Below, piece after piece: positions 25,134-45,325 of a stretch of DNA of 64,000 nt. The stretch is from Myxococcota bacterium. GTDB lineage: Bacteria; Myxococcota_A; Polyangia; Polyangiales; Sandaracinaceae. Position numbers and translations under genes: made by a program. The stretch is taken from assembly GCA_036149055.1 (NCBI GenBank), contig JAYZQJ010000143.1, forward strand, positions 1 to 64,000. The letters are read 5' to 3'. The notes beneath the pieces are model-generated. The model was not told where the DNA came from and did not search any database. It saw nothing but the letters and a program-made list of their open reading frames with translations. The first letter of the stretch is position 1. Each line of letters starts with the position of its first letter.

Positions 25134-25880
25134 ATGTCCTACGATTACGGTAAGTTCAACTGGTTCGAGCTGGTCACCACCGACGTGGAGCGCGCCGTCG
25201 CGTTCTACCCCGAGACCCTGCCCTGGAAGGCGAAGGACGCCGAGATGCCGGGCTTCCCCTACACCCTGCTGATGCACGGGGAGACCAGCGTCGGCGGGCT
25301 CACCGCGCCCCAGCAGGAGGGCACGCCGAGCCACTGGCTCAGCTACGTCTCGGTGGAGGACGTCGACGCCACCGCGAAGAAGGTCGCGGCGCACGGCGGG
25401 AAGGTGCTCGCCGACGCGTTCGAGGTCCCGTCGGTCGGGCGCATGCAGCCGGTGATGGACCCGGAGGGCGCGCCCTTCGTGCTCTTCCACGCCGCCGAGG
25501 GTGAGCCGCCCGCGACCGAGGGCGCCGGCAGCTGGCACTGGAACGAGCGGTGGGCGAAGGACCCGGAGAAGCTCGCCGGCTTCTACGCGCAGGTCCTCGG
25601 CTACTCGCACGACGTGATGGAGATGCCGAACGGCCCGTACTTCATCTTCAAGAACGGCGAGAAGATGCGCGGCGGCATGATGAAGGCGCCCTCGGACGAG
25701 ATGCCGTCGGTGTGGCTCCAGTACGTCACCGTCGACGACGCCGACGCCACCCTCGCCCGCGCCGAGCGCAACGGGGCCACGCCGCTCGGCGAGCCCATGA
25801 CCGTCCCGGGCGTGGGCCGCTTCGCGATGTTCGCCGATCCCACCGGCGCCGTGCTCGGCGTCATCACGCCCGACGCCTGA
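25134..25880 (+). CDS. VOC/glyoxalase family protein with two domains
   Basis: FNWFELVTTD..AFY, HWLSYVSVEDVDA and GRFAMFADPTGA. Confidence 0.93.
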   Translation: MSYDYGKFNWFELVTTDVERAVAFYPETLPWKAKDAEMPGFPYTLLMHGETSVGGLTAPQQEGTPSHWLSYVSVEDVDATAKKVAAHGGKVLADAFEVPSVGRMQPVMDPEGAPFVLFHAAEGEPPATEGAGSWHWNERWAKDPEKLAGFYAQVLGYSHDVMEMPNGPYFIFKNGEKMRGGMMKAPSDEMPSVWLQYVTVDDADATLARAERNGATPLGEPMTVPGVGRFAMFADPTGAVLGVITPDA

Positions 25881-25910
25881 ATCGGGTATCCTTCGAGCCA
25901 AGGGGAAGAC

Positions 25911-26261
25911 ATGCAATACCTGTTGTTGATCTACGAAGACGAGAACGTCGCCAAGGACATGACGCCCGAGGAGATGAACGCGCTCGTCGCCGAGTACGGC
26001 GCGTTCACCGAGGGCATCGTGAAGTCGGGGCACTACAAGGGCGGTGAGGCGCTCACCCCGGTGGACACCGCGACCACCGTGCGGGTGCGCGAGGGCAAGA
26101 CGGTGAAGACCGACGGGCCCTTCGCCGAGACCCGCGAGCAGCTCGGGGGCTACTACCTGGTCGAGGCGCCCGACCTCGACGAGGCGTGCCGCATCGCGGC
26201 CAAGATCCCGGCGGCCCGCACCGGCTCCATCGAGGTCCGACCCATCCAGAAGTGGGACTGA
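25911..26261 (+). CDS. YciI/DGPF-family protein
   Basis: TDGPFAETREQLGGYY and GSIEVRP. Confidence 0.95.
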   Translation: MQYLLLIYEDENVAKDMTPEEMNALVAEYGAFTEGIVKSGHYKGGEALTPVDTATTVRVREGKTVKTDGPFAETREQLGGYYLVEAPDLDEACRIAAKIPAARTGSIEVRPIQKWD

Positions 26262-27517
26262 CCGAAGCCCGCGCGGCGGTCGACCGGCTCTATCGTGAAG
26301 AGCACGGCCGGATCGTCGCGCCGCTCATCCGCCTCCTCGGCGACTTCGATCGCGCCGAGGAGGTGGTCCAGGAGGCCTTCGAGGCGGCGCTGACCCAGTG
26401 GCCGTCCGAGGGCCTCCCGGACGAGCCGCGCGCGTGGGTGCTCCGCGCGGCGCGGAACAAGGCGATCGATCGCATCCGGCGCGGCCGCACGTTCCGGGAC
26501 AAGCAGGCCGAGCTGAAGGCGGTGGCCGACGTCGAGCAGGCGTTCGCGCCGTCGGCCGAGGAGCTGCTCGAGGCCGGGCCGCGGGACGACATGCTGCGGC
26601 TCGTCTTCACCTGCTGTCACCCGGCGTTCGGTGCAGACGCGCAGATCGCGCTGACGCTGCGCACCATCTGCGGCCTCACCACGCCGGAGATCGCGCGGGC
26701 GTTCCTGGTCGACGAGAAGGCGATGGCCCAGCGGCTGGTGCGCGCCAAGAAGAAGATCCGCGCGGCCGGCATCCCCTACCGCGTGCCCGCGCCCGAGGAT
26801 CTCCCGGATCGCATCGACGCGGCGCTCGCGACGCTCTACCTCGTGTTCAACGAGGGCTACGCCGCCACCGCCGGCGACGCGCTCGTGCGCCAGGATCTCT
26901 GCCGCGAGGCGATCCGGCTGGCGGAGCTGGTGAGCGCGCTCCTGCCGAACGAGCCCGGGCCGAAGGGGCTGCTCGCGCTGATGCTGCTCCACGACGCGCG
27001 CCGTCACGCCCGGGTCGACGCGGAGGGTGATCTGGTGCTGCTCGAGGCGCAGGACCGGGCGCGCTGGGACCACGAACAGATCGCGCGGGCGCTGCCGCTC
27101 GTCGACGCCGCGCTCCGGGAGCGGCCGCCGAGGGGCTACGCGATCCAGGCCGCGATCGCCGCGCTCCACGCCCAGGCGCCGCGGCCCGAGGACACCGACT
27201 GGCGTCAGATCGCGGGGCTGTATCACGTGCTGCTCCGGCTCGAGCCGTCGCCGGTGGTGGAGCTGAACCGCGCGGTGGCGATCGCGATGCACGGCGACGT
27301 GGAGGAGGGGCTGCGGCTGCTCGACGCGCTCGCCGCGCGCGGCACCCTCGCCCGCTATCACCTGCTGCCGGCCGCCCGCGGCGACCTGCTGCGGCGGCTC
27401 GGGCGCACGGGTCAGGCCCGCGCCGCCTACGAAGAGGCGCTCTCGCTGGTGAGCAACGACGTCGAGCGGCGGTTTTTGGAGCGACGGCTCGAGGCGCTTC
27501 AGCGCGCGCAGACCTGA
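26252..27517 (+). CDS. ECF42-type RNA polymerase sigma factor with TPR-like C-terminal extension
   Basis: AEEVVQEAF, ARNKAIDRIRR, LVFTCCHPA, EIARAFL, LYLVFNEGY and VVELNRAVA; adjacent to a DGPF gene. Start is approximate. Confidence 0.92.
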   Translation: MGLTEARAAVDRLYREEHGRIVAPLIRLLGDFDRAEEVVQEAFEAALTQWPSEGLPDEPRAWVLRAARNKAIDRIRRGRTFRDKQAELKAVADVEQAFAPSAEELLEAGPRDDMLRLVFTCCHPAFGADAQIALTLRTICGLTTPEIARAFLVDEKAMAQRLVRAKKKIRAAGIPYRVPAPEDLPDRIDAALATLYLVFNEGYAATAGDALVRQDLCREAIRLAELVSALLPNEPGPKGLLALMLLHDARRHARVDAEGDLVLLEAQDRARWDHEQIARALPLVDAALRERPPRGYAIQAAIAALHAQAPRPEDTDWRQIAGLYHVLLRLEPSPVVELNRAVAIAMHGDVEEGLRLLDALAARGTLARYHLLPAARGDLLRRLGRTGQARAAYEEALSLVSNDVERRFLERRLEALQRAQT

Positions 27518-29443: not shown

Positions 29444-30424
29444 CTATCGGTCGAGGAGCGCGCGCACCGCGGCGATGGCCGCCCGATCGCGCTCGGCCCA
29501 GTCGCCGCGGATCACGACGTAGGGGCGCCCGCGCGCCTCGAGCGCGTCCCGGCAGCGCGCGAAGAACGCCCGGCGATCCTCTGGCCGGTAGCGGTGCACG
29601 TCGTCGACCCAGGGCACGTCCACGTCGCAGAGGAGCGTCAGGTCGTAGGCGGCGCGATCCGCCTCCTCGCAGATCCAGGCCGGGCAGTCGTCGAAGAGCG
29701 TCTCGGACCAGATCCGGGTGGTGAGCAGATCGCTGTCGCAGAAGAGGACCCGGTTCGCGCGCCGGGCGAGCGCCTGCTCCGAGGCGCGCTGCCCCCTCGC
29801 GATGCGCGGGATGTCCTCGTAGGCGAGCGCGCCCTCCTGCTCGGCGATGAGGAGCTGCGCGTACTCGGGCACCGCGACCGTGTCGAACGCCTCGGCCAGG
29901 GTGCGAGCGAGGGTGCTCTTGCCGGTGGACTCGGGGCCGAACAAGCACACGCGCTGGACGAAGTACGGACGCACGCACTCGGGGAGGAAGCGCCAGTGGC
30001 CGAGGGGATCCTCCCGGACCGCGGTGCCGCTGACCGGGAGCACCGATCGCGCGCGGTCCACCGGCACGAAGGAGGCGCCCAGCACCTGGGCGAGGCGGTG
30101 GCCGTAGCTCTCCGACGCGAAGACGTGGTCGAGCGGCCCCTCGGGCAGCACCCGGCGCAGCGCCGCCTCCCAGATCGCCCAGAACTCCGGGTGCTCGCTC
30201 GGGTCCTGCGGCAGCACCTCGTCGAGGTGCACGACGTGGCAGTCGGGGAAGAGCTCCCGCATCCAGCCGTAGCGGAGGGCGCCGTCGATCGGCTCGTGCG
30301 GCATCGTGCCCACGACCACGGTGAGCCGGTCCACGTAGCGGCGCGCGAACTCGACCAGGTAGACGTGCCCGAGGTGCGGCGGCATGAACTTGCCGAGCAC
30401 CATGCCCGTGGTCGGTCGCGTCAT
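29444..30424 (-). CDS. nadR: NadR-like bifunctional protein (HxGH nucleotidyltransferase plus P-loop kinase), no HTH
   Basis: VLGKFMPPHLGH, VFASESYG, VSGTAVR, GPESTGKST, VPEYA, FCDSD and PWVDD. The ATG overlaps the NRPS stop. Confidence 0.88.
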   Translation of the reverse strand: MTRPTTGMVLGKFMPPHLGHVYLVEFARRYVDRLTVVVGTMPHEPIDGALRYGWMRELFPDCHVVHLDEVLPQDPSEHPEFWAIWEAALRRVLPEGPLDHVFASESYGHRLAQVLGASFVPVDRARSVLPVSGTAVREDPLGHWRFLPECVRPYFVQRVCLFGPESTGKSTLARTLAEAFDTVAVPEYAQLLIAEQEGALAYEDIPRIARGQRASEQALARRANRVLFCDSDLLTTRIWSETLFDDCPAWICEEADRAAYDLTLLCDVDVPWVDDVHRYRPEDRRAFFARCRDALEARGRPYVVIRGDWAERDRAAIAAVRALLDR

Positions 30425-33102
30425 GAGGCCTCGAGCATACGCCGGACGTAGCGGCGGAGGAGCGCCGGATCGGGCGAGGGCGCGACGATCCCGGCGGCCT
30501 CGGCCCGGCGGCGATCGAAGCGTGCGCCGGTGGCCTGAAAGAGATCCATCGCGCGGCGCTCGTCGCGCTCGCCCAGCGCCCGCGAGAGGGCCAGCCGGGT
30601 GGGGGCGTCGATCCGATCGGTCCGCGCGATCGCCTCGCGCGGCGCCGGCTCGAGGCGCACGCCCTCGGCGCGCATCGCCTCGACGAGGGCCGCCAGCGAC
30701 GTCGGCCGCGCGGCGCAGAGGTGAAAGGTCTCGAGCGCGCGATCGGTCCGGGCGCGCAGGACGAGCGTCGCCATCGCCTCGGCCGCGTGGTCGACCGGGG
30801 TGACGTCGAAGCCGAGCGCCGGGGCCGCGTCCTCGGGGTAGACGCCGAGCCGCGCGAGCCCGCGCACGAGCATGCTCAGCCAGTCGTGCGCTGGCGCCGC
30901 GGCGGTGGCGCGATCTCCGGTGAGCAGCCCGAGCCGATGCAGGGTGATCGGGATCGCGCCCTCGGCGCGCCGCACCAGGAGCTCGGCCGCGACCTTGGAC
31001 TGCGCGTAGCCCCCGTACACCTCGCGGGTCGCGGAGAGATCGCCGTCTTCGCGCGCCGGCCGCTCGGCGCGATCGGTCGAGACGAAGACCGACAGGGTGG
31101 AGGCGAGGTGGAACGACGCGCCGGCCTCGAGCGCGAGCCGGAGGGCCTCCGCCGTCCCGTCGAGGTTGGTGGCCCGCAGCGCGGCGAAGGAGCGGGCGAG
31201 GCTCACGGTCGCCGCGCAGTGCACGACCACGTCCACCGCGTCGGTCAGCGCGGCCCAGGTCTCCGGGGCGAGCCCGAGCCCGGGCAGGGACACGTCGCCG
31301 CGGACCACGTCGGGGAGATCGGTGTCGCGCCGCACCAGGCTCACCACCCGGAGCCCGCGCGCGCGGAGCGCGTCGTGGAGGCGGCGCCCGAGGAAGCCGG
31401 TCGCGCCGGTGAGGAGCGCGACGCGGGGAGGGCGCGCGGGGCGGGGCGCGCGCGCGAGGGCGGCCTCGAGCGCGGCCGACGGCCGGGCGACCGCGCGCAG
31501 GGCGGCGAGCGTCATCGTCGACGTCTCCTCCGCGTCGAGCGCCCGGGCGAGGCCGGCCACCGTGGGGTGCGCTTCGACGAGCTCGGGCCCTACGGCGAGC
31601 CCGGCCGCGGCCGCGCGGGCGACCAGATCGACGAGCGCGAACGAGTCGCCGCCCCGCGCGAAGAAGTCGTCGTCGCGCGCCACCGGGACGCCGAGCGCGC
31701 CCTCGAACATCGCCGCCAGCTGCGCCTCGAGCGGCGTCTCGAGCTCGTCTCCGCGGGCCGTGGTGATCGGCGCGTCGGCCAGGGCGGCGAGGTCGACCTT
31801 GCCGGTGGCGCCTCGCGGCAGGGCGTCGACGCGCTCGAGCCACGCCGGGACCATCCAGCCCGGCAGGCGCTCGGCCAGGTGAGCGCGCAGCGCGTCGGCG
31901 GACGCCTCGCCTTCGAAGAACCCGACCAGAGCGTCCCGGGCGCCGAGCCGGCGCTTCTGCACCGCGGCCGCCCGCACCTCGGGGTGCTCCGTCAGCGCGG
32001 CCTCGATCTCCTCGGGCGCCACCAGCCGACCCCGCAGCTTGAGCTGTCGATCGATCCGCCCGAGGAAGACGTACTCGCCGTCTGGCAGGCGCTCGACGCG
32101 ATCGCCGGTGCGGTAGACGCGGGCGCCCTCGAGCGAGGTGAAGCGCTCGTGCGGCCCGTCCCCGAGGTAGCCGCGCGCGACCTGCGGGCCGCCGATCCAG
32201 AGCTCGCCTTCGACGAGGTGATAGTCGACGCCGGGGAGCGGGCGACCGATGCGCGCGCCGTGCGGACGGTCCGGATCGCAGACCCCGAGGCTCGTGCAGA
32301 CGGTGGCCTCGGTAGGGCCGTACACGTTGACGAGGCGCACGCGCGCGGCCCAGCGGCGCACGGCGTCCTCGGCGCAGACCTCGCCGCCGATGACCACCGC
32401 GCGGAGCGACGCCGGGGCGCGGTCGGGGTCGAGGTGAGGCAGCAGCGAGGGAGGCAGATCCACGTGTGTGATCGCGTGGCGGTGGAGCGCCGAGAGCACC
32501 GCCTCGGGCGTCCGGGCGCGCGAGACGAAGAGCGTCGCCCCGGCGGTGAGCGCGGTGAAGACGTCCGAGACCGAGGCGTCGAAGCTCGGCGACAGCACCC
32601 AGAGCGCGCGATCTCCCGGCCGCAGGTCGAACGCCTCCACCTGCGCCGCGAGCATCGAGGGCAGCCCCGCGTGCGTCACCACCACCCCCTTCGGCGCGCC
32701 CGACGAGCCCGAGGTGAAGATCACATACGCCTCGCGGATGGAGTCTTCTCGTCCGATCCCCTGCGTTGGGAAACAAAGAAACTCCGTCCCCGTGTCCGTG
32801 ATCCGGGGGCGGGCGAGGGCGCGCATGGCGGCGCGGCGCTTCTCGGGGAGCCCCGGGTCGAGGGGCATCCAGGCGGCGCCGCAGCGCCAGGCGGCGATCG
32901 CAGAGGTGATCCAGTCGATCGACTTGTCGAGCGCGAGGGCGACGCGCTCGCCCGGGCCGGCCCCGGCCTCGCGGAGCTGCGTCGCCCGCTCGCCGGTCGC
33001 GGCCCAGAGCGCGGCGTAGGTGAGCGCCCGGTCTCCGTCCACGACCGCGAGGGCGTCGGGGCGCGCGGCCGCCTGGGCCTCGATGCGGGCGAGCACGCTC
33101 AT
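30421..33102 (-). CDS. NRPS-like enzyme: adenylation, thiolation and terminal reductase domains (A-T-R)
   Basis: A domain: AYVIFTSGSSGAPKG, FDAS, NVYGPTE, YRTGD, GRIDRQLKLRG, TGKVD. T domain: DFFARGGDS. R domain: LLTGATGFLG, GYAQSK. Confidence 0.93.
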   Translation of the reverse strand: MSVLARIEAQAAARPDALAVVDGDRALTYAALWAATGERATQLREAGAGPGERVALALDKSIDWITSAIAAWRCGAAWMPLDPGLPEKRRAAMRALARPRITDTGTEFLCFPTQGIGREDSIREAYVIFTSGSSGAPKGVVVTHAGLPSMLAAQVEAFDLRPGDRALWVLSPSFDASVSDVFTALTAGATLFVSRARTPEAVLSALHRHAITHVDLPPSLLPHLDPDRAPASLRAVVIGGEVCAEDAVRRWAARVRLVNVYGPTEATVCTSLGVCDPDRPHGARIGRPLPGVDYHLVEGELWIGGPQVARGYLGDGPHERFTSLEGARVYRTGDRVERLPDGEYVFLGRIDRQLKLRGRLVAPEEIEAALTEHPEVRAAAVQKRRLGARDALVGFFEGEASADALRAHLAERLPGWMVPAWLERVDALPRGATGKVDLAALADAPITTARGDELETPLEAQLAAMFEGALGVPVARDDDFFARGGDSFALVDLVARAAAAGLAVGPELVEAHPTVAGLARALDAEETSTMTLAALRAVARPSAALEAALARAPRPARPPRVALLTGATGFLGRRLHDALRARGLRVVSLVRRDTDLPDVVRGDVSLPGLGLAPETWAALTDAVDVVVHCAATVSLARSFAALRATNLDGTAEALRLALEAGASFHLASTLSVFVSTDRAERPAREDGDLSATREVYGGYAQSKVAAELLVRRAEGAIPITLHRLGLLTGDRATAAAPAHDWLSMLVRGLARLGVYPEDAAPALGFDVTPVDHAAEAMATLVLRARTDRALETFHLCAARPTSLAALVEAMRAEGVRLEPAPREAIARTDRIDAPTRLALSRALGERDERRAMDLFQATGARFDRRRAEAAGIVAPSPDPALLRRYVRRMLEAS
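32736..32791 (-). repeat. Intragenic in-frame copy (D) of the GGGACGGAGT repeat, with a degenerate second arm
   Basis: The minus strand reads GGGACGGAGTTTCTTTGTTTCCCAACGCAG...AGAAGACTCCATCC, an AT-rich patch within the GC-rich NRPS gene. Confidence 0.7.
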
Positions 33103-33929
33103 GGGGTGCGCACGTAGTCGACGAGCGCGGAGCCGCGCGAGCGGTTGTCCACGTTGGGGGCGCCGCGGCCGGCCGCGTGGTCGTCGAGCCAGACCACCCG
33201 GAAGTCGAGGCTGTAGCGGGTGGTCCCGCGGCTCTGCGGCCGGGTCGCGTGGAACTGCGCGCCGCTGAAGCGGAGGTTGTCGCCGCGGCGACACGCGAAG
33301 CCGACCGCGGGGCCCGGATCCGGGTCGCCGATCACCCCGGGGTAGCGCGCCTTCAGGCCGTGGTCGCGGTGCTGCCAGCCGATCTTGAGGTCCCAGCCCT
33401 CGCGCACCCAGTCGCCGTACTCGAAGATCTCGGACTCGTTCGGCACCGCCGCCGCGAAGCGCTCCGGGTAGAAGACGAAGGTCTCCTCCTCCGGCAGGTC
33501 GTGGAGCGGGATCCACCAGGTGATCACCGCCTGCGAGTGCGCGTACCAGGTGTCGCGATGCGCCAGGTAGACCGCCTTGGCCCGCGGGTTCTCGTGCCCC
33601 CGGTGCGACACGACCCGCAGCCGGATCGGATCGAAGGCGGCGCGCGCCGGATCCACCCCGCACGCCGCGATCACCTCCCGGACGATCTCGTGCCAGCGCG
33701 GTTCGAGGAACAGCGTCCGGCGCACCCGGCCGATCCGCGCGAAGAGCGTCTCCGGGGAGAGCGCCTCGTGCGCCCTCCGCACGTCGTCCACTCCGAGCTC
33801 CGAGGCGAGCAGCGCCTCCGCCTCGGCGGCCGCGCGGCGCGAGGCCTCGGTGGGCTCGGTCAGGAGCACCGCGCCGTCGTAGAGCGCGGCCCGCGCCGCG
33901 TCCCAGCCGGGATCCTCGCGCCGGATCAC
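33099..33929 (-). CDS. Putative Fe(II)/2-oxoglutarate-type (PhyH-like) oxygenase
   Basis: HRDTWY (HxD), WWIPLHD, a distal H in QFHAT, and RYSLDFR. The GTG overlaps the upstream stop. Confidence 0.7.
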   Translation of the reverse strand: MIRREDPGWDAARAALYDGAVLLTEPTEASRRAAAEAEALLASELGVDDVRRAHEALSPETLFARIGRVRRTLFLEPRWHEIVREVIAACGVDPARAAFDPIRLRVVSHRGHENPRAKAVYLAHRDTWYAHSQAVITWWIPLHDLPEEETFVFYPERFAAAVPNESEIFEYGDWVREGWDLKIGWQHRDHGLKARYPGVIGDPDPGPAVGFACRRGDNLRFSGAQFHATRPQSRGTTRYSLDFRVVWLDDHAAGRGAPNVDNRSRGSALVDYVRTP

Positions 33930-34672
33930 GCCGGCCTCCGCGCGAGCGCGATGCACCGCGGGCTGTCCACGCCGAGCGGCTCGCCGTCGGTGCTGCCGAG
34001 CAGCGTGACCTCCTCGAAGCCGGCCTCGCGCAGCAGCTTCACGATCGTGTGCGGCATCAGCAGCCGCACCGCGCTCTCGTGCCGCACCCGCTCGCCGTCG
34101 GGCAGGAAGTAGGTCCACGTCTTGCGCATCATGCCGGCGCCGAGGTCGAGCCGGGTCTCGCGCACCAGGGTCACCTCGCCCCGTGGCGTCTCGCGTCTCG
34201 TGACGACCCCGGGCTGGAAGCCGCGGAGCACCCCGGGCAGGTTCATCGTGTCGAGCGCGAAGCGGCCGCCCGGGCGCAGGCTCTCGAAGGCCCGCTCGAG
34301 CATGCGCGCGCTGTCGACGTCGTCGGCGGAGTAGCCGAAGCTCGTCCACCAGTTGAACGCCGCGTCGCAGGGCGGATCGGCGACGAAGGCCCGCGCGTCC
34401 CCCGCGTGGAGCGCGACCTCGAGGCCGGCCTCGCGCGCCCGGGCCCGCCCGCGCTCGACGTAGGCCGCCGCCTGATCGACCCCGACGATGTCGCAGCCCC
34501 GCGCGGCGAGCGGGATCGCCAGGCTGCCGACGCCGCAGCACTGGTCGAACACCCGCGCCCCGGCCTCGAGGTCGAGGTGCGCCATCAGGAACCCCACCTC
34601 GCGCGCGTCGTCCTCGCGCTCGAGGAGCACGTCCGCGAGCAGCTCGTCGTAGAGGCCTTCCCACCAGCTCAT
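33926..34672 (-). CDS. Class I SAM-dependent methyltransferase
   Basis: VFDQCCGVG, VGVD, GDAR, WTSFGY and LRPGGRF. Confidence 0.92.
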   Translation of the reverse strand: MSWWEGLYDELLADVLLEREDDAREVGFLMAHLDLEAGARVFDQCCGVGSLAIPLAARGCDIVGVDQAAAYVERGRARAREAGLEVALHAGDARAFVADPPCDAAFNWWTSFGYSADDVDSARMLERAFESLRPGGRFALDTMNLPGVLRGFQPGVVTRRETPRGEVTLVRETRLDLGAGMMRKTWTYFLPDGERVRHESAVRLLMPHTIVKLLREAGFEEVTLLGSTDGEPLGVDSPRCIALARRPA

Positions 34673-36483
34673 CGTGCGTCTCCCAACCCGAAGCGGCGCT
34701 GCAGGAGCGTCGCGGTCAGCGCCAGCATCAGCGCCGGCTCGTGGGCCGCGCGCTCCGAGGTCGGCCGCGCCGCCTGCGCCTCGAGGGCCGCGCGCACGCG
34801 ACCGCGGTCGAGGAACGACGGCAGCGCGTCCCACATCGCCTCGTCTTCGATCAGCGGCGGCGCGAGGAACGGGTGCTTGCGGCGCGTCACCACCTCCTCG
34901 GGGAGCCGCCCGCGCATCACCGCCCGCAGCGCGTGCTTCTCGACGCCGTCGCGGATCTTGTCCTCGAGCGGGAGCCGGAGCGCGACCTCGAACACGCGAT
35001 GATCCAGAAACGGCGTGCGCCCCTCGATCGACGCCGCCATCTCGGTCCCGTCCCCCAGCGTGCGCAGGATGTAGCCGGCGAGCGCGAGCTGGGTCCACGT
35101 CCAGGCGGCGCGCTCCGGCGGCGCGTCCGTGGGCTCACCCGCGTCGAGCTCCTCCGCCAGCCCGGCCCAGGTCTCGCCCGGCTCGATCGGGAGCTCCGGC
35201 GACAGCAGCGCGCGGAAGCGCCCGGCCAGCAGCGCCTTCGCCTCCAGCCAGCTCGGGACGAAGCCCAGCGCGGCGCGCAGCTCCGGCAGCGCGGGCGCCG
35301 GCGCGTCCGGCATCATCACGCCCCGGTAGCGCGCGCTCTCTCGCTCGTGCCGCGCGCTCGCCTCCGCGTCCCCGGCCAGCGCGTCGCGCACCAAGTGGGG
35401 GTAGCCGAGCAGCGCCTCGTCGGCGCCCTCTCCGGTGAGCACTGCCTTCGCGCCCGCCTCCCGGATCGCGCGGGCGAGCAGCAGCTTCGCCGGGAGCTGC
35501 CCGTTGATCGCGAGCCCCTCCGAGAACCACACGGCGTCCGGCAGCGCCTCGCGCATGGCCTCCGGGCGCGCGTCCACCACCGTGTGCGTCGCCCCCAGCC
35601 GCTCGGCCACCGCCCGGGCGTGCGCCGACTCGTCCCAGCCCTCGCCGTCGAAGCGCACGCCGAAGGTGCGCGGCGCCTCGCCCCCCGCGAGCGCGACCAC
35701 CGACGAGGAGTCGAGCCCCCCGCTCAGCGCGAACGCGACCGGCACCGTCGCCCGCGCGCGCAGCCGCGCGGCCTCGGTCAGGGCCTCCGCGAGCTCCTCC
35801 GGCGTGCTCGGGGCGCGGTCGCGATCCCGCGGGTCCCAGTAGCGCCGCAGCGTCACGCGCTCGCCCTCCACCAGCAGCAGGTGCGCCGGCGGCACCGCGC
35901 GCACCCCGTGGAACATCGTGCGCGACGGGGGCAAGTACTGATGCGTCGCCACGTGCGCGAGCGACCGGGCGTCCCAGCGCGCCGGCACGCCCATCGCGAA
36001 CAGCGCCTTGGCCTCCGACGCGACGAGCACCCGCCCCTCGTGCCGGGCCCACACCAGCGGCTTCACCCCGAAGCGATCCCGCGCCGCGACCAGCCGGCGC
36101 CGTCCGGCGTCCCAGAGCGCCATCGCCAGCTCACCCCGCAGCCGCTCGACGAACGCGTCGCCGTGGACGCGGTAGAGGTGCAGCGCCAGCTCCGAGTCGC
36201 TCGAGGTCCGGAAGCGGTGTCCGCGCGCCTCCAGCCCCGCGCGCGCCTCCTCGTGGCCGTAGAGCTCTCCGTTCACGCTCACCGCGAGGTCGCCGTCCAC
36301 GATCGGCTGGGCCGCGTCGTCGCCGCCCACGATCGCGAGCCGCGCGTGCGCCAGCCCCGCGCCGCCCGCCGGGTCGAGCCAGACCGCGTCGCCGTCGGGA
36401 CCCCGGTGACGCAGCGCCGCGACGCCGGCGCGCAGCCGCCGCGCGTCGAGGCCCGGGCCGACCACCGCGACCACCCCGCACAT
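34669..36483 (-). CDS. asnB: Asparagine synthetase B-like glutamine-dependent amidotransferase
   Basis: N-terminal MCG, HRGPD, NGELY, RDRFGVKPL, LSGGLDSS, LTGEGADE and EGRTPFLD. Confidence 0.93.
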   Translation of the reverse strand: MCGVVAVVGPGLDARRLRAGVAALRHRGPDGDAVWLDPAGGAGLAHARLAIVGGDDAAQPIVDGDLAVSVNGELYGHEEARAGLEARGHRFRTSSDSELALHLYRVHGDAFVERLRGELAMALWDAGRRRLVAARDRFGVKPLVWARHEGRVLVASEAKALFAMGVPARWDARSLAHVATHQYLPPSRTMFHGVRAVPPAHLLLVEGERVTLRRYWDPRDRDRAPSTPEELAEALTEAARLRARATVPVAFALSGGLDSSSVVALAGGEAPRTFGVRFDGEGWDESAHARAVAERLGATHTVVDARPEAMREALPDAVWFSEGLAINGQLPAKLLLARAIREAGAKAVLTGEGADEALLGYPHLVRDALAGDAEASARHERESARYRGVMMPDAPAPALPELRAALGFVPSWLEAKALLAGRFRALLSPELPIEPGETWAGLAEELDAGEPTDAPPERAAWTWTQLALAGYILRTLGDGTEMAASIEGRTPFLDHRVFEVALRLPLEDKIRDGVEKHALRAVMRGRLPEEVVTRRKHPFLAPPLIEDEAMWDALPSFLDRGRVRAALEAQAARPTSERAAHEPALMLALTATLLQRRFGLGDAR

Positions 36484-37364
36484 CAGCCCGCGCCCTCCAG
36501 CGCCCGCGCCCAGATCTCCTCGGCCGCGCTCGCCGGGGTCAGGAACGTCTTCACGTCCTCGCGAGAGCCGAACGCGCGGTCGTACTCGGCGAGCGGCAGC
36601 ACCGGCCCGAGCAGGTCGTCGACCAGCGACGGACGCTCCTCGAGCCGCGCGATCGCGTCGTCCATCGGCGCGTAGCGTGCCGTCGCGATCCGGATCTCCC
36701 GCTGCACCGCCGCCGCGACGTCGAACGGCACCGGCGCGTACGGGCGGCTCTTCAACACCAGCGTGCCTCCCGGCCGGAGCGCCGCGATCGCGCGCGTCAG
36801 CGTCTCGGCGGTGGCCCGGGTCTCGATCACGAAGTCGAGGTCCGCGTCCCCCTCGTCGAGCGCCCCGACGTCCGAGAAGCCGGCCTGCGCGAGCACCCGC
36901 CGGGTCAGGGTCGCGATCCGCCCGCCGCCGAGGATCCGGCCGCGCCCGTTCGCCGGCAGCCCGATCCCGAGCACCGCCATCGACGCGGCCATCGGCTCCG
37001 CGTACGCGGCGTGCCGCATCGAGAGCCCTCGGGCCCGATGCAGCGCGCGGCCGGGCACGACGAGCTCCTCCGCGAACGCGCCGTCGCGATCGACCCCGAG
37101 GAACACGTCGCGCTCGAGGGCCGGCATCACGCAGACCGCCTCGCCCGGCGACCACGCCTCCGCCCGGCTCTCCCGGACCACGCCGCAGACCTCGTGCCCG
37201 AGCACCCGCGGCTCGTCGACCGGGATGCGACCCTCGGCGACGTACACGTCGGTGCGGCAGACCCCGACGCACACGACCTCGAGCCGGACGTCGCCCGCGC
37301 CCACCGTCGGCCGCGCGCCCTCGCCCAGCCGCACCCCGCCCCGCTCGCGCCGCAGTCCACGCAT
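36483..37364 (-). CDS. Zn-dependent MDR (alcohol dehydrogenase-like) protein
   Basis: GVCRTD, LGHE, GAFAE and YAEP. The four-Cys structural Zn loop is absent. Confidence 0.85.
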   Translation of the reverse strand: MRGLRRERGGVRLGEGARPTVGAGDVRLEVVCVGVCRTDVYVAEGRIPVDEPRVLGHEVCGVVRESRAEAWSPGEAVCVMPALERDVFLGVDRDGAFAEELVVPGRALHRARGLSMRHAAYAEPMAASMAVLGIGLPANGRGRILGGGRIATLTRRVLAQAGFSDVGALDEGDADLDFVIETRATAETLTRAIAALRPGGTLVLKSRPYAPVPFDVAAAVQREIRIATARYAPMDDAIARLEERPSLVDDLLGPVLPLAEYDRAFGSREDVKTFLTPASAAEEIWARALEGAG

Positions 37365-37444
37365 GGCCCTCACTTTAGTGTCTGGGCGACACAAATCAAT
37401 CCCCGACTTGCGTCTCGCGCCGGGGGCCCCACGCCCCCGAGCAC

Positions 37445-38254
37445 ATGCCGCGCTACCACGGTCACCAGCTCCATGTCTCCGTCGCCGGCCCCGAAGACGG
37501 ACCGGTCGCGGTCTTCATCCATTCCTCCGGCCTGAGCGGGCGGCAGTGGAACCGGTACGCCGAGGCGTTCGTGGCCGCGGGCTACCGGGTCCTGGTCCCC
37601 GACCTCATCGGGCAGGGCGAGTCCGAGCCCTGGCGCGCCGAGATGCCGTTCCACTTCCACGCCGACCTCCGCGCCATGGAGGAGCTCGTGTCGGAGGTGG
37701 CTGGCCCGGTGACCCTCGTCGGCCACTCCTACGGCGGCCTGCTGAGCCTCCAGCTCGCGGCGGCGCTACCCCCCGATCGCCTGCGCGCGCTCGTGGTCTA
37801 CGAGCCGGTCACCTGGGGCGTGCTCCACGCGGAGGACGAGCGCGCGCTCGCGAGCTTCCGCGAGGACGGCTTCTTCGACGACGCGCTCGGCGGCACCGAG
37901 GAGTGGACGCGGCGCTTCGTCGACTACTGGAGCGGCGAGGGCGCCTACGACGCGCTGCACGAGGCGGCCCGCGCGCAGATGAACCGGAGCGCGCGCAAGA
38001 CGTTCGAGGAGGTCCGCAGCCTCTGCTACGACTGGACCCCGGCGCGTCACTACGAGGGCATCGTCTGCCCCACCCTCGTGATGCACGGCACCCGCTCTCC
38101 CGCGGAGGCGCAGCGCATCTGCGCCCTCGTCGCCGCCGCCCTGCCCGCCGCGACCCTCCGCCCGATCGAAGGCGCCGGTCACCTCGGCGCCGTCCAGCTG
38201 GCCTCCACCCTCGCCCCTCTCGTCCTCGAGTGGGCGCAGCAGACAGACCTGTGA
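37445..38254 (+). CDS. Alpha/beta hydrolase, divergent from the operon
   Basis: PDLIGQGES, GHSYG nucleophile elbow and GAGH. Confidence 0.92.
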   Translation: MPRYHGHQLHVSVAGPEDGPVAVFIHSSGLSGRQWNRYAEAFVAAGYRVLVPDLIGQGESEPWRAEMPFHFHADLRAMEELVSEVAGPVTLVGHSYGGLLSLQLAAALPPDRLRALVVYEPVTWGVLHAEDERALASFREDGFFDDALGGTEEWTRRFVDYWSGEGAYDALHEAARAQMNRSARKTFEEVRSLCYDWTPARHYEGIVCPTLVMHGTRSPAEAQRICALVAAALPAATLRPIEGAGHLGAVQLASTLAPLVLEWAQQTDL

Positions 38255-38276: not shown

Positions 38277-39201
38277 CTCTCGCGAAGCCGCCAAGCCGCA
38301 AAGGGAGGTGCGGGCGGCGGGGTCGTGACTCGCCGGGTCGGGGCTGACTGCGGCGGTCTCGTCGACAGCTTTTTTCTCTCGCAGAGGCGCAGAGTCGCAG
38401 AGGGGCGGCGGGGTGGCGGCTCGCCGGGTCGGGGTGGGCGGGGACGGGTTTGGCGACAGCCTTTTTGTCTCACGCAAAGGCGCAAAGACGCAAAGAGCGA
38501 GCGGGGCGGCGAGATGGTGGTTCGCCGGGGCTCGGCGGGTCGTCGCGGTCTCGCCGACAGCTTTTTGTTTCTCGCAGAGGCGCAGAGTCGCAGAGGGGCG
38601 GCGGGGTGGCGGCTCGCCGGGTCGGGGTGGGCTGGCACGGCTTTGGCGACAGCTTTTTTTGTCTCACGCAAAGACGCAAAGACGCAAAGAGCGAGCGGGG
38701 CGGCGAGATGGTGGTCCGCCGGGGCTCGGTGGGTCGTCGCGGTCTCGTCGACTGCTTTTTGTCTCTCGCAGAGGCGCAGAGTCGCAGAGGGGCGGCGGGG
38801 TGGCGGCTCGCCGGGTCGGGGCGGGCTGGCACGGCTTCGGCGACAGTTTTTTGTCTCACGCAGAGGCGCAGAGTCGCAGAGGGGCGGCGGGATGGCGGCT
38901 CGCCTGCCAGTACCCAGCCGCCGGGCGCGGTGGCGTTCCAGGTGGCTGGCGGCGGTCACGTCACGACCCGGCACGACCTGGCCACCTCCCATCCCGCGGC
39001 CCCCAACGCCTCTGCGCCTCTGCGTCTCTGCGAGAAATTAATTGTCTCCCAGTCGTCAACGATCGGAGGAGCGGCACAATCGTGCCGGCGGTGTGGGCGC
39101 TGGCCGTCGGGGACCCGGCGGCCGGGCGCCACGGCGTGCCAGGCGGCTGGGAGCGCTGAGGCGCTCAGCGGGGACTTGGCGGCTTTGCGCCTTGGCGAGA
39201 G
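38277..39201. repeat. Intergenic array of triple-octamer repeats (CGCAGAGN)x3 / (CGCAAAGN)x3
   Basis: Forward motifs start at 38380, 38473, 38573, 38667, 38767 and 38859 (A-B-A-B-A-A, 193-194 bp dimer period). A reverse copy lies at 39009-39039, and CGCCAAG-type variants at about 38281 and 39175-39201. Confidence 0.92.
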
Positions 39202-41801: not shown

Positions 41802-44294
41802 ATGAACGACGAGACCCGGAGCGACGGACTGCCGGCCTCCCTCACCCGCGAGATCGCGCGGGCGCGGGCGCGCCTCAACCGCCACGTGCTGCTCGACGCG
41901 ACGCTCTGTGGCCTCGCGGCCGGGCTCGCCGCCTTCGCCCCCGCCGCGCTCGCGCTCTCGATCGCGGGCCTGCCCCTCCACTGGGGCGCCGCGGCGATGG
42001 GCCTCGCCCTGGTGGGCGTCATGGCCTTCGAGCTCCGCCGCCGCTGGCACGACGACCTCGACGCGGCGATGGTGCTCGACCGGGTGCTCGACGCGAAGGA
42101 CCGCTTCGCGACCGCGCTGCAGCTCTCGGGCGCCGAGGAGGTGCCGAAGCTCCACCGCCTCCAGATTCGCTCGGCCGAGACCTTCCTCGCCGACGCGGGC
42201 GAGGTGCCGGCCCCGCCGCGCCCGCCCTTCCGCGTCGGACGCTACGCCGCGGCCGCGGTGATCGCGCTCGGCGTCTCCGTCCCCCTCGCGGTGGCCTGGC
42301 CGGAGCTGGTGGCCTGGCTCGGCGGTGACGACGCCGCGCTCGAGCCCGAGGACCCGCGCACGCCGGAGGAGATCGCGGCCGCCGCCGAGGCCCTCCGCCA
42401 GCGCCTCGCCGAGAACCCCGACCGCCGGCTCGACGCAGAGATCAACGCGCTCGAGCACGAGCTCGCCGAGCAGCGCGCCCGGGCGATGGACCAGCGCGCC
42501 GACGCCATCCGGGAGGCGGCCGAGATCCTGGAGCGCGCCGCGGGCATCGATCCCGAGGCCGACGGAGGCGAGGGCGCCGAGCCGGGCGAAGAGCGGGCGA
42601 GCGCCGAAGATCGTCCGCTCCCCACCTCCGTGGACCAGGAGCCTCCCGAGACCGCGTCACGCCGGCTGATGGACGCCTGGGACGAGGCGCGCGAGGCGAT
42701 GGAGCGCTGGCGGGAGGCGGCGCGGCGGCCCGACGCCGATCCGTTCCAGACCGCGCAGCTCCAGCACGAGGCCCAGCGCCGTCAGATGGAGGCGCTCCAG
42801 CTCGCGCGCCAGGAGCGCAGCTGGGAGCAGGCCCAGACCGAGGAGCAGCGCGAGGCGCAGCGCCGCCAGCGAGAGCAGCGCGCGGCCGAGGCCCAGACCC
42901 CCGCCGACCGGATGAGCGAGTCGGTGGATCGGCTCGACCGCGCGCTCGCCGCCCTGCACCGCGACGACGACTCGCCCGACGTGCCTCCCCCGGCGGTGAG
43001 CGAGGCCCTGCGCGACGCCAACGAGCGCCTCGCCGAGCACACCCCCCGCACCGCCGAGCAGCTCGACCGCGCCGCCGGCGCCCGCGACCAGGGCGACGGC
43101 GAGCAGATGGATCGCGCCCTCGAGCAGGCCCGCGAGGCGCTCCGCCGCGAGGCCGGCCAGCAGGCGCAGCAGCTGAGCGACGCCCGCCGCCGCCTCGATC
43201 AGCTGCACGACGAGGTCGCCCGCCGCGCCGCCGAGCGCGCGGGGCAGCAGGGCAGCGGCGAGCAGCTCGCGCAGGCGGGGCAGCAGGGGCTGCAGGAGGG
43301 CCAGAACGGGCAGCAGGGTCAGAGCGGGCAGCAGGGGCAGAGCGGGCAGCAAGGGCAGAACGGGCAGCAAGGCCAGAACGGTCAGGGCCAGCAGGGCCAG
43401 GACGGGCAGCAGGGTCAGAATGGCCAGGGCCAGAACGGGCAGCAGGGTCAGCAGGGGCAGAACGGTCAGGGCCAGAACGGGCAGCAGGGTCAGGGGCAGA
43501 ACGGGCAGGGCCAGAACGGGCAGCAGGGTCAGGGACAAGGCCAGGGGCAGGGTCAGGGACAAGGCCAGGGCCAGGGCCAGGGCCAAGGCCAGGGGCAGGG
43601 GCAGGGCCAGGGTCAGGGACAAGGCCAGGGTCAGGGACAGGGTCAGGGACAGGGCCAGGGCCAGGGGCAGGGACAGGGCCAGGGTCAGGGTCAGGGTCAG
43701 GGACAAGGCCAAGGGCAGGGGCAAGGCGACGGGCAAGGGCACGGGCACGGGCAAGGGCACGGGAGCTCGTCGCAGACTTCGTCTGGCTCGGGGCAAGGAC
43801 GAGGTCAGGGGCAGGGGCAGGGGCAGACCGGGTGGGGGCAGCAGGGGAATGGGCAGGGCGGCGGTCAGGGACAGAACGGGCAGGGCGGCGGTCAGGGACA
43901 GGGAGGGCAGGCGCAGGGCGGTGAGTCCCAGCGCGGCAGCCAGTCCTGGGGCTCCGGGTCGGGCGGGGATCCGCTCGGGCAGGGCGCGGCCACCGGGGAC
44001 TCGAACCACGACGTGAACACCGACCCGGGCGCCGACCCGGGCCAGCAGGCGAGCACCAGCCAGGACGCCCAGGAGGGCGGCTTCATCCCCGGCGGCGGGC
44101 GGGGAGGCGGGCAGAGCTCGCAGCACATGGACGCGCTGCAAGGCGGGCGCGGCGGGCCGGGCTCCGGATCGCTCGCCGGCGGTGGGCAAGACGGCCCCCG
44201 CGTGGGCGGCGACAGCACGATCCCCGCCTCCCTTCGCGCCTACGTGCGGCGCTACCTCGAGACGATCCGCGGTGGACAGACCGACGGCAATTGA
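41802..44294 (+). CDS. Membrane-anchored coiled-coil protein with a long Gln/Gly tract (MoxR-operon accessory)
   Basis: N-terminal TM helices, DRFATA, coiled coil, (QG)n tract and C-terminal IPASLRAYVRRYL. Confidence 0.85.
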   Translation: MNDETRSDGLPASLTREIARARARLNRHVLLDATLCGLAAGLAAFAPAALALSIAGLPLHWGAAAMGLALVGVMAFELRRRWHDDLDAAMVLDRVLDAKDRFATALQLSGAEEVPKLHRLQIRSAETFLADAGEVPAPPRPPFRVGRYAAAAVIALGVSVPLAVAWPELVAWLGGDDAALEPEDPRTPEEIAAAAEALRQRLAENPDRRLDAEINALEHELAEQRARAMDQRADAIREAAEILERAAGIDPEADGGEGAEPGEERASAEDRPLPTSVDQEPPETASRRLMDAWDEAREAMERWREAARRPDADPFQTAQLQHEAQRRQMEALQLARQERSWEQAQTEEQREAQRRQREQRAAEAQTPADRMSESVDRLDRALAALHRDDDSPDVPPPAVSEALRDANERLAEHTPRTAEQLDRAAGARDQGDGEQMDRALEQAREALRREAGQQAQQLSDARRRLDQLHDEVARRAAERAGQQGSGEQLAQAGQQGLQEGQNGQQGQSGQQGQSGQQGQNGQQGQNGQGQQGQDGQQGQNGQGQNGQQGQQGQNGQGQNGQQGQGQNGQGQNGQQGQGQGQGQGQGQGQGQGQGQGQGQGQGQGQGQGQGQGQGQGQGQGQGQGQGQGQGQGQGQGQGQGQGDGQGHGHGQGHGSSSQTSSGSGQGRGQGQGQGQTGWGQQGNGQGGGQGQNGQGGGQGQGGQAQGGESQRGSQSWGSGSGGDPLGQGAATGDSNHDVNTDPGADPGQQASTSQDAQEGGFIPGGGRGGGQSSQHMDALQGGRGGPGSGSLAGGGQDGPRVGGDSTIPASLRAYVRRYLETIRGGQTDGN
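43300..43920 (+). repeat. Coding low-complexity tract (CAGGGN)n encoding QG/QNG repeats
   Basis: Long run of 6-bp CAGGGN/CAAGGN units with synonymous variation. Confidence 0.9.
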
Positions 44295-44304
44295 GAGAGA
44301 GACG

Positions 44305-45324
44305 ATGGGCGAAACGAATCAGGTACACGTGCTCAACCCGTTCGACAGCGTTCGCGCGCTCTGCCGCGACATGACGGCGGAGATCGGCAAGCGGGTGGTC
44401 GGCCAGCAGGACGCCATCGACTGCCTCACGGCGGGCTTGCTCCTCGGCGGCCACGTCCTCATGGAGGGCGTGCCCGGCGTCGGCAAGACGCTGCTGGCGC
44501 GCACCCTCGCGGACGTCGTGGACCTGAGCTTCGCCCGCGTGCAGTTCACGCCCGACCTCATGCCGGCCGACGTGCTCGGCACCCACATCGTCTCGGTCGG
44601 GTCCGACGGTCGGCCGACGATGACGCTCCAGCAGGGCCCGCTCTTCGGCAACGTCATCCTCGCCGACGAGATCAACCGCGCCTCGCCCAAGACGCAGTCC
44701 GCGCTCCTCGAGGCCATGCAGGAGAAGCAGATCTCCCTCGGCACGGAGACCTACCCGCTGCCGCGCCCGTTCTTCGTCGTCGCCACTCAGAACCCGATCG
44801 ACAACGAGGGCACCTACCCGCTCCCGGAGGCGCAGCTCGATCGTTTCCTGATGAAGCTGATGATCGGCTTCCCCTCCGAGGACGACGTGCTCGCGATCGT
44901 CGATCGCACCGCCGACGGGATCGACGCCACGGTCGGCAGCGTGGCCACGAGCGAGCAGCTGATCAGCGCCGGCAAGACCATCCGGCAGATGCCCACCGCC
45001 GAGACCATCAGCCGCTACGCGGTGCGCCTGGTGCTCGCGACCCACCCCGAGCACGAGTACGCGCCCGCCTGCGTGCGCCGCTACGTGCGGGCCGGCGCCT
45101 CACCCCGCGCGGCCCAGAGCCTCCTCGCGGTCGCGAAGTTCTTCGCCGTGCTCGACGGCCGGCTCAACGCGAGCGCCGACGACGTGCGCCGCGCCGCCTA
45201 CCCCTGCCTCCGCCACCGCATCCTCCTCAACTTCGACGCCATCGCCGACGACGCGACCACCGACACGCTGATCCGTCAGCTGCTGATGGATCTGGACGCC
45301 CCGAAGAACCCGAAGCGCAAGTAA
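44305..45324 (+). CDS. moxR: MoxR-family AAA+ ATPase
   Basis: EGVPGVGKT, RVQFTPDLMPAD, LADEINRA, ATQNP, LPEAQLDRF and GASPRA. Confidence 0.96.
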   Translation: MGETNQVHVLNPFDSVRALCRDMTAEIGKRVVGQQDAIDCLTAGLLLGGHVLMEGVPGVGKTLLARTLADVVDLSFARVQFTPDLMPADVLGTHIVSVGSDGRPTMTLQQGPLFGNVILADEINRASPKTQSALLEAMQEKQISLGTETYPLPRPFFVVATQNPIDNEGTYPLPEAQLDRFLMKLMIGFPSEDDVLAIVDRTADGIDATVGSVATSEQLISAGKTIRQMPTAETISRYAVRLVLATHPEHEYAPACVRRYVRAGASPRAAQSLLAVAKFFAVLDGRLNASADDVRRAAYPCLRHRILLNFDAIADDATTDTLIRQLLMDLDAPKNPKRK

Positions 45325-45325
45325 C

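Follow-up and report, generated by a model that had tools for sequence, protein, structure and literature searches.

We report a six-gene operon, from a member of the Sandaracinaceae (Myxococcota), in which a nonribosomal peptide synthetase (NRPS)-like reductase is coupled to a NadR-like kinase and adenylyltransferase, and we propose, with a probability of about 0.5, that its product would be an ADP-linked amino alcohol bearing a carboxamide, which would stay inside the cell as a non-glycosidic mimic of NAD. The operon lies on the minus strand of a 64,000-nucleotide stretch (contig JAYZQJ010000143.1 of assembly GCA_036149055.1, positions 1 to 64,000), hereafter the window. It encodes, in order, a medium-chain dehydrogenase (MDR), an AsnB-type amidotransferase, an S-adenosylmethionine (SAM)-dependent methyltransferase (MT), an Fe(II)/2-oxoglutarate oxygenase, an NRPS-like protein with adenylation, carrier and thioester reductase domains (A-T-R) and the NadR-like protein, which pairs a nicotinamide mononucleotide (NMN) adenylyltransferase (NMNAT) with a P-loop kinase. 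This unit is real, widespread and undescribed in the literature searched, and its mechanism is half-resolved.

The six genes form a conserved operon

Open reading frame (ORF) and family scans recovered the six genes in the order and at the place given by an earlier, sequence-only reading of the window (Table 1), and the re-derived coordinates reproduced its overlaps of 1-4 nt: the junctions TGATG, ATGA, GTGA, ATGA and ATGA, in operon order, represent overlaps of 1, 4, 4, 4 and 4 nt. The catalytic residues of all six proteins are kept across their homologues and therefore none of them looks like a relic. The oxygenase and NadR are each encoded by a single-copy gene in the host genome.

The distribution of this cassette was analyzed in a locus set anchored on the oxygenase and composed of the best 80 of 131 genome matches, the best 80 of 132 metagenome matches and five relatives, totaling 165 loci, or 153 distinct loci after dropping 12 duplicates. 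The complete six-gene set is present in 50 of the distinct loci, many of the remainder being short contigs and one of the 50 (L093) being near-identical to the window, and in 31 of the 42 loci spanning at least 20 kb. Since the six genes recur together to this extent, their linkage is far beyond chance, and they constitute a real and widespread operon unit. They occur in six gene orders, with the order of the window in 30 loci and the order MDR-AsnB-ATR-NadR-MT-oxygenase in 14; MDR and AsnB are always adjacent, in that order. The co-occurrence check suggested by the sequence-only reading thus finds NadR traveling with the other five genes through all six arrangements. Nine named phyla are represented among the six-gene loci: Myxococcota (19), Verrucomicrobiota (6), Actinomycetota (3), Planctomycetota (3), Pseudomonadota (2) and, with one locus each, Acidobacteriota, Lentisphaerota, Cyanobacteriota and Bacillota, while 13 more loci carry no phylum assignment. 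Across 351 genomes of the host phylum, the oxygenase was detected in 19, the NadR-like gene in 35 and both in 15; 6 of 41 close relatives, a tally that includes genome G023, encode the oxygenase.

An NrtR-type operator places the operon in a NAD-metabolism context

Ten bases before the MDR start codon lies the palindrome TTAGTGTCTGGGCGACACAAA (37375-37395), a feature absent from the sequence-only reading. According to the parts of PMC2330246 covered here, NrtR sites are palindromes of 21 bp built around a GT-N7-AC core, with motifs that vary between lineages, and ADP-ribose is the ligand that weakens DNA binding, as shown for other NrtR proteins. The 9.9-Mb host genome contains three WGTGT-N7-ACACW sites: that of the cassette, one overlapping the start of pncB, with nrtR next in line, and a third upstream of an operon ending in an adenylosuccinate synthetase paralogue. 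The nrtR gene, encoding Nudix and winged-helix domains, forms a pncB-nrtR pair (G000:C248; PF17767, PF00293, PF21906) behind its matching site.

When 70 homologous loci were screened upstream of their first gene with a pattern taken from the two non-cassette genomic sites, 11 gave an operator match with at most two mismatches, whereas 60 shuffles gave 0.03 matches on average and 1 at most; these operator counts include L093, and L025 and L026 share one site. A second palindrome type precedes the first gene in 6 of the 70 loci and recurs in two held-out loci (L245 and L246), and no operator was detected before any of 495 internal gene starts. At locus L046, two sites precede an array of nrtR, pncB, pncA, the cassette and draG, in this order. 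More generally, nrtR, nadV, nadM, pncA/B, prs, draG or NADAR genes are located within 5 kb in 19 of 100 loci (draG in 6, NADAR in 3), compared to a chance expectation of about 0.4 per 100 derived from six such places in the 9.9-Mb host genome, and some cassette operons also include nadM-nadV, pncB-pncA or prs. It is therefore likely, given the operator and the NAD-salvage and NrtR neighbors, that ADP-ribose, which arises when NAD is cleaved, induces the operon, and NrtR repression lifted by this ligand is, in this genome, the highly probable mode of control predicted from the sequence. The third genomic site (G000:C224:653-3834; locus L283) precedes a zinc-finger/kinase-like ORF, a VWA-like ORF (both assigned by eye, without a Pfam match) and the adenylosuccinate synthetase paralogue; this operon is possibly another nucleotide-making member of the NrtR regulon.

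A role of the cassette in replacing NAD synthesis, de novo or core, was considered and rejected. NadA is encoded in 4/4 cassette-bearing relatives and in 5/5 other cassette genomes, and nadC, nadD and a nadE of the glutamine-dependent type are retained in the host genome; the operon is therefore an addition to normal NAD metabolism. NadA itself was not found in the host genome with a profile or a same-genus query, perhaps owing to an assembly gap (96% completeness), although nadC is present.

Gene fusions link the thioester reductase to the NadR kinase

Natural fusions connect the last two steps of the putative pathway. In 3 of the 165 loci (L025, L049 and L092) the A-T-R and the whole NadR share one stop-free frame, with the methionine at the junction kept in L025 and not in L049 or L092, and of the 120 best-listed A-T-R homologues, five continue from the R domain straight into the NadR kinase domain and one into the whole NadR. 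Among nine longer proteins checked, from 150 listed, we identified four MT-oxygenase fusions and one oxygenase-A-T-R fusion. The simplest reading of a kinase fused directly behind a thioester reductase is that it would phosphorylate the alcohol released by the reductase, and we infer that NadR very probably acts on the A-T-R product.

These fusions also bear on the suggestion of the sequence-only reading that NadR could provide self-resistance, in which case the first five enzymes would make a secreted antivitamin or antibiotic and NadR would confer resistance to it or convert it to an inactive storage form. The patchy spread of the oxygenase, both in the phylum and among close relatives, and enzyme types typical of specialized metabolism are what such a product would predict. 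It is nevertheless hard to reconcile with NadR, or its kinase, being fused to the R domain, with the NrtR-type operator and NAD-salvage neighbors, and with the lack of a recurrent exporter or hydrolase: no small-molecule exporter was found among the 99 ORFs scanned of 227 picked flanking ORFs, and all-against-all clustering revealed no recurrent neighbor family except a generic ABC ATPase family. We consequently regard a secreted product as very unlikely and self-resistance as disfavored.

The adenylation domain is predicted to load an amino acid with a long polar side chain

The carrier serine (S487), the GxxGxxG motif and Y699/K703 of the reductase domain are present in 80/80 aligned A-T-R sequences, and a Pfam scan detected no condensation domain in the protein. 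The A-domain pocket code reads DASD[VIL]GV[VI]CK, with D235, S239, D278, G301, C331 and K517 invariant in 80/80 A domains, and 120 further A-T-R homologues largely agree with it. Compared with codes in the portion of PMC12283262 covered here, it shares 7-8 of 10 residues with DAQDLGVVDK, the code given for Glu/Gln, and agrees at 7 of 10 positions with the consensus for Arg, which has D278 and E239. The cassette code differs mainly by its smaller S239, suggesting that the side chain is polar and long, similar to that of Gln or exceeding it in size. On these residues, a single alpha-amino acid of this kind is the likely substrate of the A domain, and an amide made by AsnB would fit this prediction. 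Neither of the two cassette codes tried in a literature search for pocket codes returned a match, nor did the one supplement of PMC12283262 consulted. The closest solved R domain is that of MxaA, and the best NCBIfam match of the whole protein is MxcG, at 421.5 bits and thus below the cut-off of 2300; the closest named homologue among the 120 best-listed belongs to a Sandaracinaceae bacterium (P0128). The structural matches of the R domain, the oxygenase and the methyltransferase do not name the substrate.

That the pocket resembles the Arg consensus, except for the smaller residue 239, is also relevant to a repair or scavenging function, in which the A domain would take an amino acid bearing a damaged NAD fragment (for instance a ribosylated one from degraded ADP-ribosylated proteins) and the pathway would recycle or neutralize it. 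Such a function would be in keeping with NrtR control, as part of a damage response, and with the presence among the neighbors of DraG-type ADP-ribosylglycohydrolases and NADAR, which remove ADP-ribose adducts. Their frequencies (6 and 3 of 100 loci), however, make neither of them a core part of the system, and a set of six enzymes consuming SAM, glutamine, ATP, NADPH and 2-oxoglutarate has the appearance of a biosynthetic route, not a degradative one, so that we deem this function quite unlikely. A conversion of glycine betaine to CDP-choline was dropped as well, given that D235 is kept and that AsnB, the oxygenase and NrtR control would be left unexplained.

Four upstream enzymes carry intact catalytic motifs

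The MDR motifs CRTD, GHE and E123 are conserved in 69 aligned sequences. After its GxGxxA motif (GxGxIA in the window) the protein is about 34 residues shorter than PDB 4EJ6, and this segment is short in all 69 sequences, so that the adenosine subsite may be partly missing and the cofactor perhaps unusual. AsnB scores above the TIGR01536 cut-off (367.6 versus 267.1 bits) and has the features of a class II amidotransferase, with an N-terminal Cys nucleophile (Cys2, in 69/73 sequences) and an SGGxDS loop; SGGLDS and GEGADE are nearly invariant.

The structure model of the methyltransferase (predicted local distance difference test [pLDDT] 94.7) matches best the fold of the amine N-methyltransferase YunM (Z 28.3, root-mean-square deviation [rmsd] 2.5, 238 residues aligned), and its other top matches are the amine N-methyltransferases CypM, CgnL, CcbJ, NmbA and GSMT and the indole C-methyltransferase PsmD. 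The oxygenase model (pLDDT 90.8) displays the double-stranded beta-helix fold of the PhyH clade, with PtlH as its best match (Z 15.2, rmsd 3.6, 226 residues aligned). H124, D126, H227, R238 and S240 are present in 150/150 aligned sequences, and since the Asp of the triad is kept, this is not a halogenase-type triad. A PDB sequence search with the oxygenase profile returned nothing, and a protein atlas only PhyH-like or unnamed clusters. Family scans assigned none of the six proteins to a pyridoxal phosphate (PLP)-dependent family.

Several observations concern the wider distribution of these two enzymes. MT-oxygenase pairs occur without the other four genes at loci L167 and L170, and MT-oxygenase fusions include P0291, P0330 and P0386; together they suggest that the pair can work as a separate module. 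Distant oxygenase relatives (29-35% identity; L012, L169, L239 and L240) lie, as judged by eye, among nucleotide-sugar-like genes with a methyltransferase, and 9 of 30 alignment members match TIGR04324 weakly. Phage carriage was rejected, no relative of the oxygenase being found in viral contigs.

NadR groups with salvage enzymes, and no pnuC was found beside the cassette

As the sequence-only reading had claimed, the cassette NadR lacks a helix-turn-helix (HTH) domain, its match to the E. coli-type model beginning at model position 64. K12, H17, H20, W82, W85, K169 and D230 are present in 89/89 sequences, and relatives in the PDB include 8X7F, 1LW7, 9X6F and 6GYE. Its TIGR01526 score (289.1 bits) lies below the cut-off of 341.15, but this cut-off does not separate cassette from salvage enzymes, because the pnuC-linked relative L259 (273.2 bits) falls short too. 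The tryptophan aligned to W90 of Bas30_86 (phage NARP3), a residue that stabilizes NMN according to the portion of PMC13464706 covered here, is kept, and HTH-less NadR proteins are described in the corresponding portion of PMC7221760 as ordinary salvage enzymes. The kinase lid, in contrast, differs from that of PnuC-linked sisters, with V277, Y279 and L280 in 76, 83 and 73 of 90 sequences.

The absence of a pnuC neighbor, also pointed out in the sequence-only reading, holds well beyond the window: scanning the 96%-complete host genome for PF04973 revealed no PnuC, and a search with one PnuC query found none beside the cassette in the 165 loci. Among loci anchored on NadR and inspected in 1.5-kb flanks, one phylum presented 14 with pnuC, 9 with the cassette and 6 with neither (n=29), and a second phylum 20, 1 and 3 (n=24), respectively; in neither phylum do pnuC and the cassette ever flank the same nadR. 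Our reading is that NadR would be a salvage enzyme recruited for an alcohol similar to nicotinamide riboside (NR) but different from it, with true NR as the main rival.

Proposed pathway and product

In the proposed scheme, NrtR would repress the operon until ADP-ribose from NAD cleavage releases the repression. MDR and AsnB would likely complete a side-chain carboxamide, MT and the oxygenase would likely add a methyl and a hydroxyl group, and the A domain would likely load the resulting alpha-amino acid, with its long polar, Gln-like or larger side chain. The R domain, alone or with MDR, would then likely release a primary alcohol in place of the ribose 5'-OH, which the NadR kinase would likely phosphorylate and to which the NMNAT domain would likely add AMP. 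The product would resemble NAD+ without the cleavable nicotinamide-ribose bond and, no exporter having been found, would therefore stay in the cell, where it would either inhibit NADases and ADP-ribosyltransferases (rival toxins or phage enzymes) or divert them as a decoy, or else replace the cofactor in a cleavage-proof form. The co-travel of the genes through six orders and the reductase-NadR fusions support, as a pathway, the earlier proposal of a small amidated and methylated compound that NadR phosphorylates and adenylylates.

A more specific and more tentative version, which we consider possible but rather doubtful, is that bacteria across many phyla answer NAD+ destruction with a natural non-glycosidic NAD+ analogue, in which a pyridinium or other carboxamide would be joined to ADP via an amino-alcohol linker. 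One candidate for this linker derives from an aminocarboxypropyl chain and would place four atoms between the ring nitrogen and the phosphate oxygen, as in ribose.

Observations at odds with the proposed product

Several results weigh against an ADP-linked carboxamide made under NrtR control. Regarding its chemistry, no pyridine-ring-building enzyme is encoded in the operon, and the fold matches give no support to aminocarboxypropyl transfer by MT, the aminocarboxypropyl transferase MccD ranking 20th among the MT folds (Z 19.5 versus 28.3 for the best). Acetobacteraceae loci keep MT, the oxygenase, A/R and NadR with no MDR or AsnB nearby, and the best AsnB matches in three such genomes are partial (35-36%); amidation is therefore not obligatory everywhere. 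Regarding its regulation, a recognizable operator is present in only 17 of the 70 regions; the 53 without a site may be expected, because NrtR motifs are lineage-specific according to the parts of PMC2330246 covered. The motif of the first operator type was read partly from the window's own site, the other two sites having first been found with a window-derived pattern, and the motif of the second type and the neighbor markers were chosen after seeing the data, in related loci that are not independent.

As for NadR, all its catalytic residues are common to salvage enzymes. In trees built from subsets, without near-duplicates, several of the divergent rows and six Acetobacteraceae rows on long branches, the cassette NadRs and 10-12 PnuC-linked or unassigned NadRs (55-60% identity) form one clade with support of 100/98 (32 of 37 rows) and 99 (57 of 80 rows), outside which other PnuC-linked enzymes fall. 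A cassette-only clade appears in 0% of bootstrap trees, yet it is not rejected by the approximately unbiased test (p 0.40). Given this joint clade, the NadR substrate may simply be nicotinamide riboside. The sequence-only reading had named, as evidence against itself, a nadR that is not syntenic with the other genes and groups with salvage NadR: the synteny is well established by the conserved cassette, whereas the grouping with PnuC-linked enzymes is indeed observed.

This grouping is one reason to consider that the five upstream enzymes replace PnuC, making or regenerating authentic NR or NMN by an unknown route, which NadR would convert to ordinary NAD+ upon an ADP-ribose signal. The mutual exclusion of the cassette and pnuC beside NadR and the operons shared with nadM-nadV, pncB-pncA and prs agree with such a role, but the cassette has no recurrent ribosyltransferase or nucleoside phosphorylase, D235 and K517 indicate an alpha-amino acid substrate, the kinase-on-R fusions suit an alcohol made by the reductase, the kinase lid is cassette-specific, and the relatives and other carriers examined (4/4 and 5/5) encode NadA. 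We thus consider the replacement of PnuC unlikely, and favor the ADP-linked amino alcohol.

The Acetobacteraceae variant itself (L057, L061-L063, L070 and L074) consists of a nadM-nadV-A-R-nadR array, in which A and R are in different frames and NadR is long-branched, faced by an MT-oxygenase pair.

Relationship to known systems

Several NAD-related natural products and inhibitors share with our proposal an NAD-shaped molecule. Altemicidin is built from beta-NAD, and its type of cluster has a PLP-dependent NAD/SAM annulation enzyme, whereas the operon encodes no PLP enzyme. Tiazofurin and benzamide adenine dinucleotides and ADP-HPD are NAD-related inhibitors, the drug-derived dinucleotides being made by a kinase plus NMNAT, the two closing steps of our proposal as well; here, in contrast, the cell itself would make the molecule on purpose, deriving its non-ADP half from an amino acid via the A-T-R. 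The terminal reductases of NRPS systems (myxochelin MxcG and myxalamid MxaA) and carboxylic acid reductases have in common with the cassette protein the A-T-R layout, an intact carrier Ser and YxxxK. The cassette A-T-R differs from these enzymes in having neither a condensation domain nor a partner NRPS or polyketide synthase, in its pocket code without a literature match, and in the kinase and nucleotidyltransferase that come after R.

The pnuC-nadR salvage systems, as described in the parts of PMC13464706 (phage NARP3) and PMC7221760 (HTH-less L. lactis NadR) covered here, share the two-domain, HTH-less NMNAT-kinase NadR with the same catalytic motifs, and the nearest relatives of the cassette NadR (55-60% identity) are pnuC-linked. 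The cassette is set apart from them by the absence of pnuC, the coupling or fusion to an NRPS-like reductase, the changed kinase lid and five extra biosynthetic genes. With the NrtR regulons of PMC2330246, as far as covered, it shares a 21-bp GT-N7-AC palindrome before the first gene and, in the same genome, an nrtR with pncB behind a matching site; its neighbors draG, nadV, nadM, pncAB and prs are regulon members in Table 1 of that paper. In contrast, that table, to which the comparison was confined, lists no operon with an NRPS-like, AsnB, oxygenase or methyltransferase gene, and the cassette would be a biosynthetic member of the NrtR regulon.

Literature searches, with MIBiG, antiSMASH and most subscription journals outside their scope, found no description of this gene set, and the part of PMC9503650 covered mentions no such cassette, consistent with the earlier statement that the set was not recognized as a characterized cluster. 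Although the families of the individual enzymes are all known, we found no system in which an NRPS-like reductase supplies a kinase/adenylyltransferase within a NAD-damage regulon.

Cleavage of NAD+ is a weapon shared by bacterial toxins, antiphage systems and phages, and the known answers to it are to rebuild NAD (NARP1-3, salvage) or to strip ADP-ribose from targets (DraG, NADAR). If our proposal is true, an ADP-ribose-induced NRPS-like reductase with a recruited salvage kinase/adenylyltransferase would represent a third answer, namely a new NAD-shaped molecule. Such an analogue would resist NADases and ADP-ribosyltransferases and either inhibit them or sustain redox metabolism, amounting to a chemical form of immunity to toxins and phage enzymes that target NAD or to a new natural cofactor. 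The route would be new even if the product were true nicotinamide riboside. A natural uncleavable NAD analogue would thus be relevant to inhibitors of NADases, PARPs and ADP-ribosyltransferases and to non-canonical redox cofactors. The six enzymes are small and soluble, making the proposal directly testable by expression.

Features of the locus and its surroundings

Table 1. Positions of the operon genes, the operator and the divergent hydrolase in the window
Feature	Position	Strand	Details
Zn-dependent medium-chain dehydrogenase (MDR), shortened Rossmann domain	36483..37364	-	293 aa; PF08240
AsnB-type glutamine amidotransferase / amide synthetase	34669..36483	-	604 aa; TIGR01536 367.6 bits
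Class I SAM methyltransferase (MT), amine N-methyltransferase fold group	33926..34672	-	248 aa; PF13649
Fe(II)/2-oxoglutarate oxygenase, PhyH clade	33099..33929	-	276 aa, GTG start; weak PhyH match
NRPS-like A-T-R (adenylation, carrier, thioester reductase)	30421..33102	-	893 aa; PF00501, PF00550, PF07993
HTH-less NadR: N-terminal HxxH nucleotidyltransferase (NMNAT), C-terminal P-loop kinase	29444..30424	-	326 aa; TIGR01526, PF13521
Palindromic NrtR-type operator, GT-N7-AC core	37375..37395	.	21 bp; 10 bp upstream of MDR start codon
Alpha/beta hydrolase, divergent bystander	37445..38254	+	start 80 bp from MDR start

The divergent alpha/beta hydrolase does start on the plus strand 80 bp away, as previously noted, and was rejected as a seventh gene, given that among the 165 loci it adjoins the cassette only in the near-identical L093. 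The window has a GC content of 74%, the host genome being 9.9 Mb long and 96% complete, and a sigma-70 promoter scan returned no site. In one RNA run a fraction of 0.18 of the words was present, with short near-identical contigs on nadR, A-T-R, the oxygenase, MT, asnB and the hydrolase; as these possibly derive from DNA, they were not used as evidence of expression.

Downstream of the operon (25134-27517) lie glyoxalase-like, YCII and DUF6596/TPR sigma-factor genes, and a DUF6596 protein also flanks the cassette in a genome of the same genus (L008). Just past the hydrolase, a 194-bp unit is repeated in tandem about 2.7 times (38353-38878; 93% matches), and its relatives account for 85 matches on 41 contigs of the host genome and resemble a dispersed intergenic repeat family. 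Further along, the region 41802-46216 includes an 830-aa ORF without a Pfam match, which contains a long Gly-Gln repeat (about 39 copies of a 6-bp unit) and is followed by genes for a MoxR-type AAA ATPase and a DUF58 protein.

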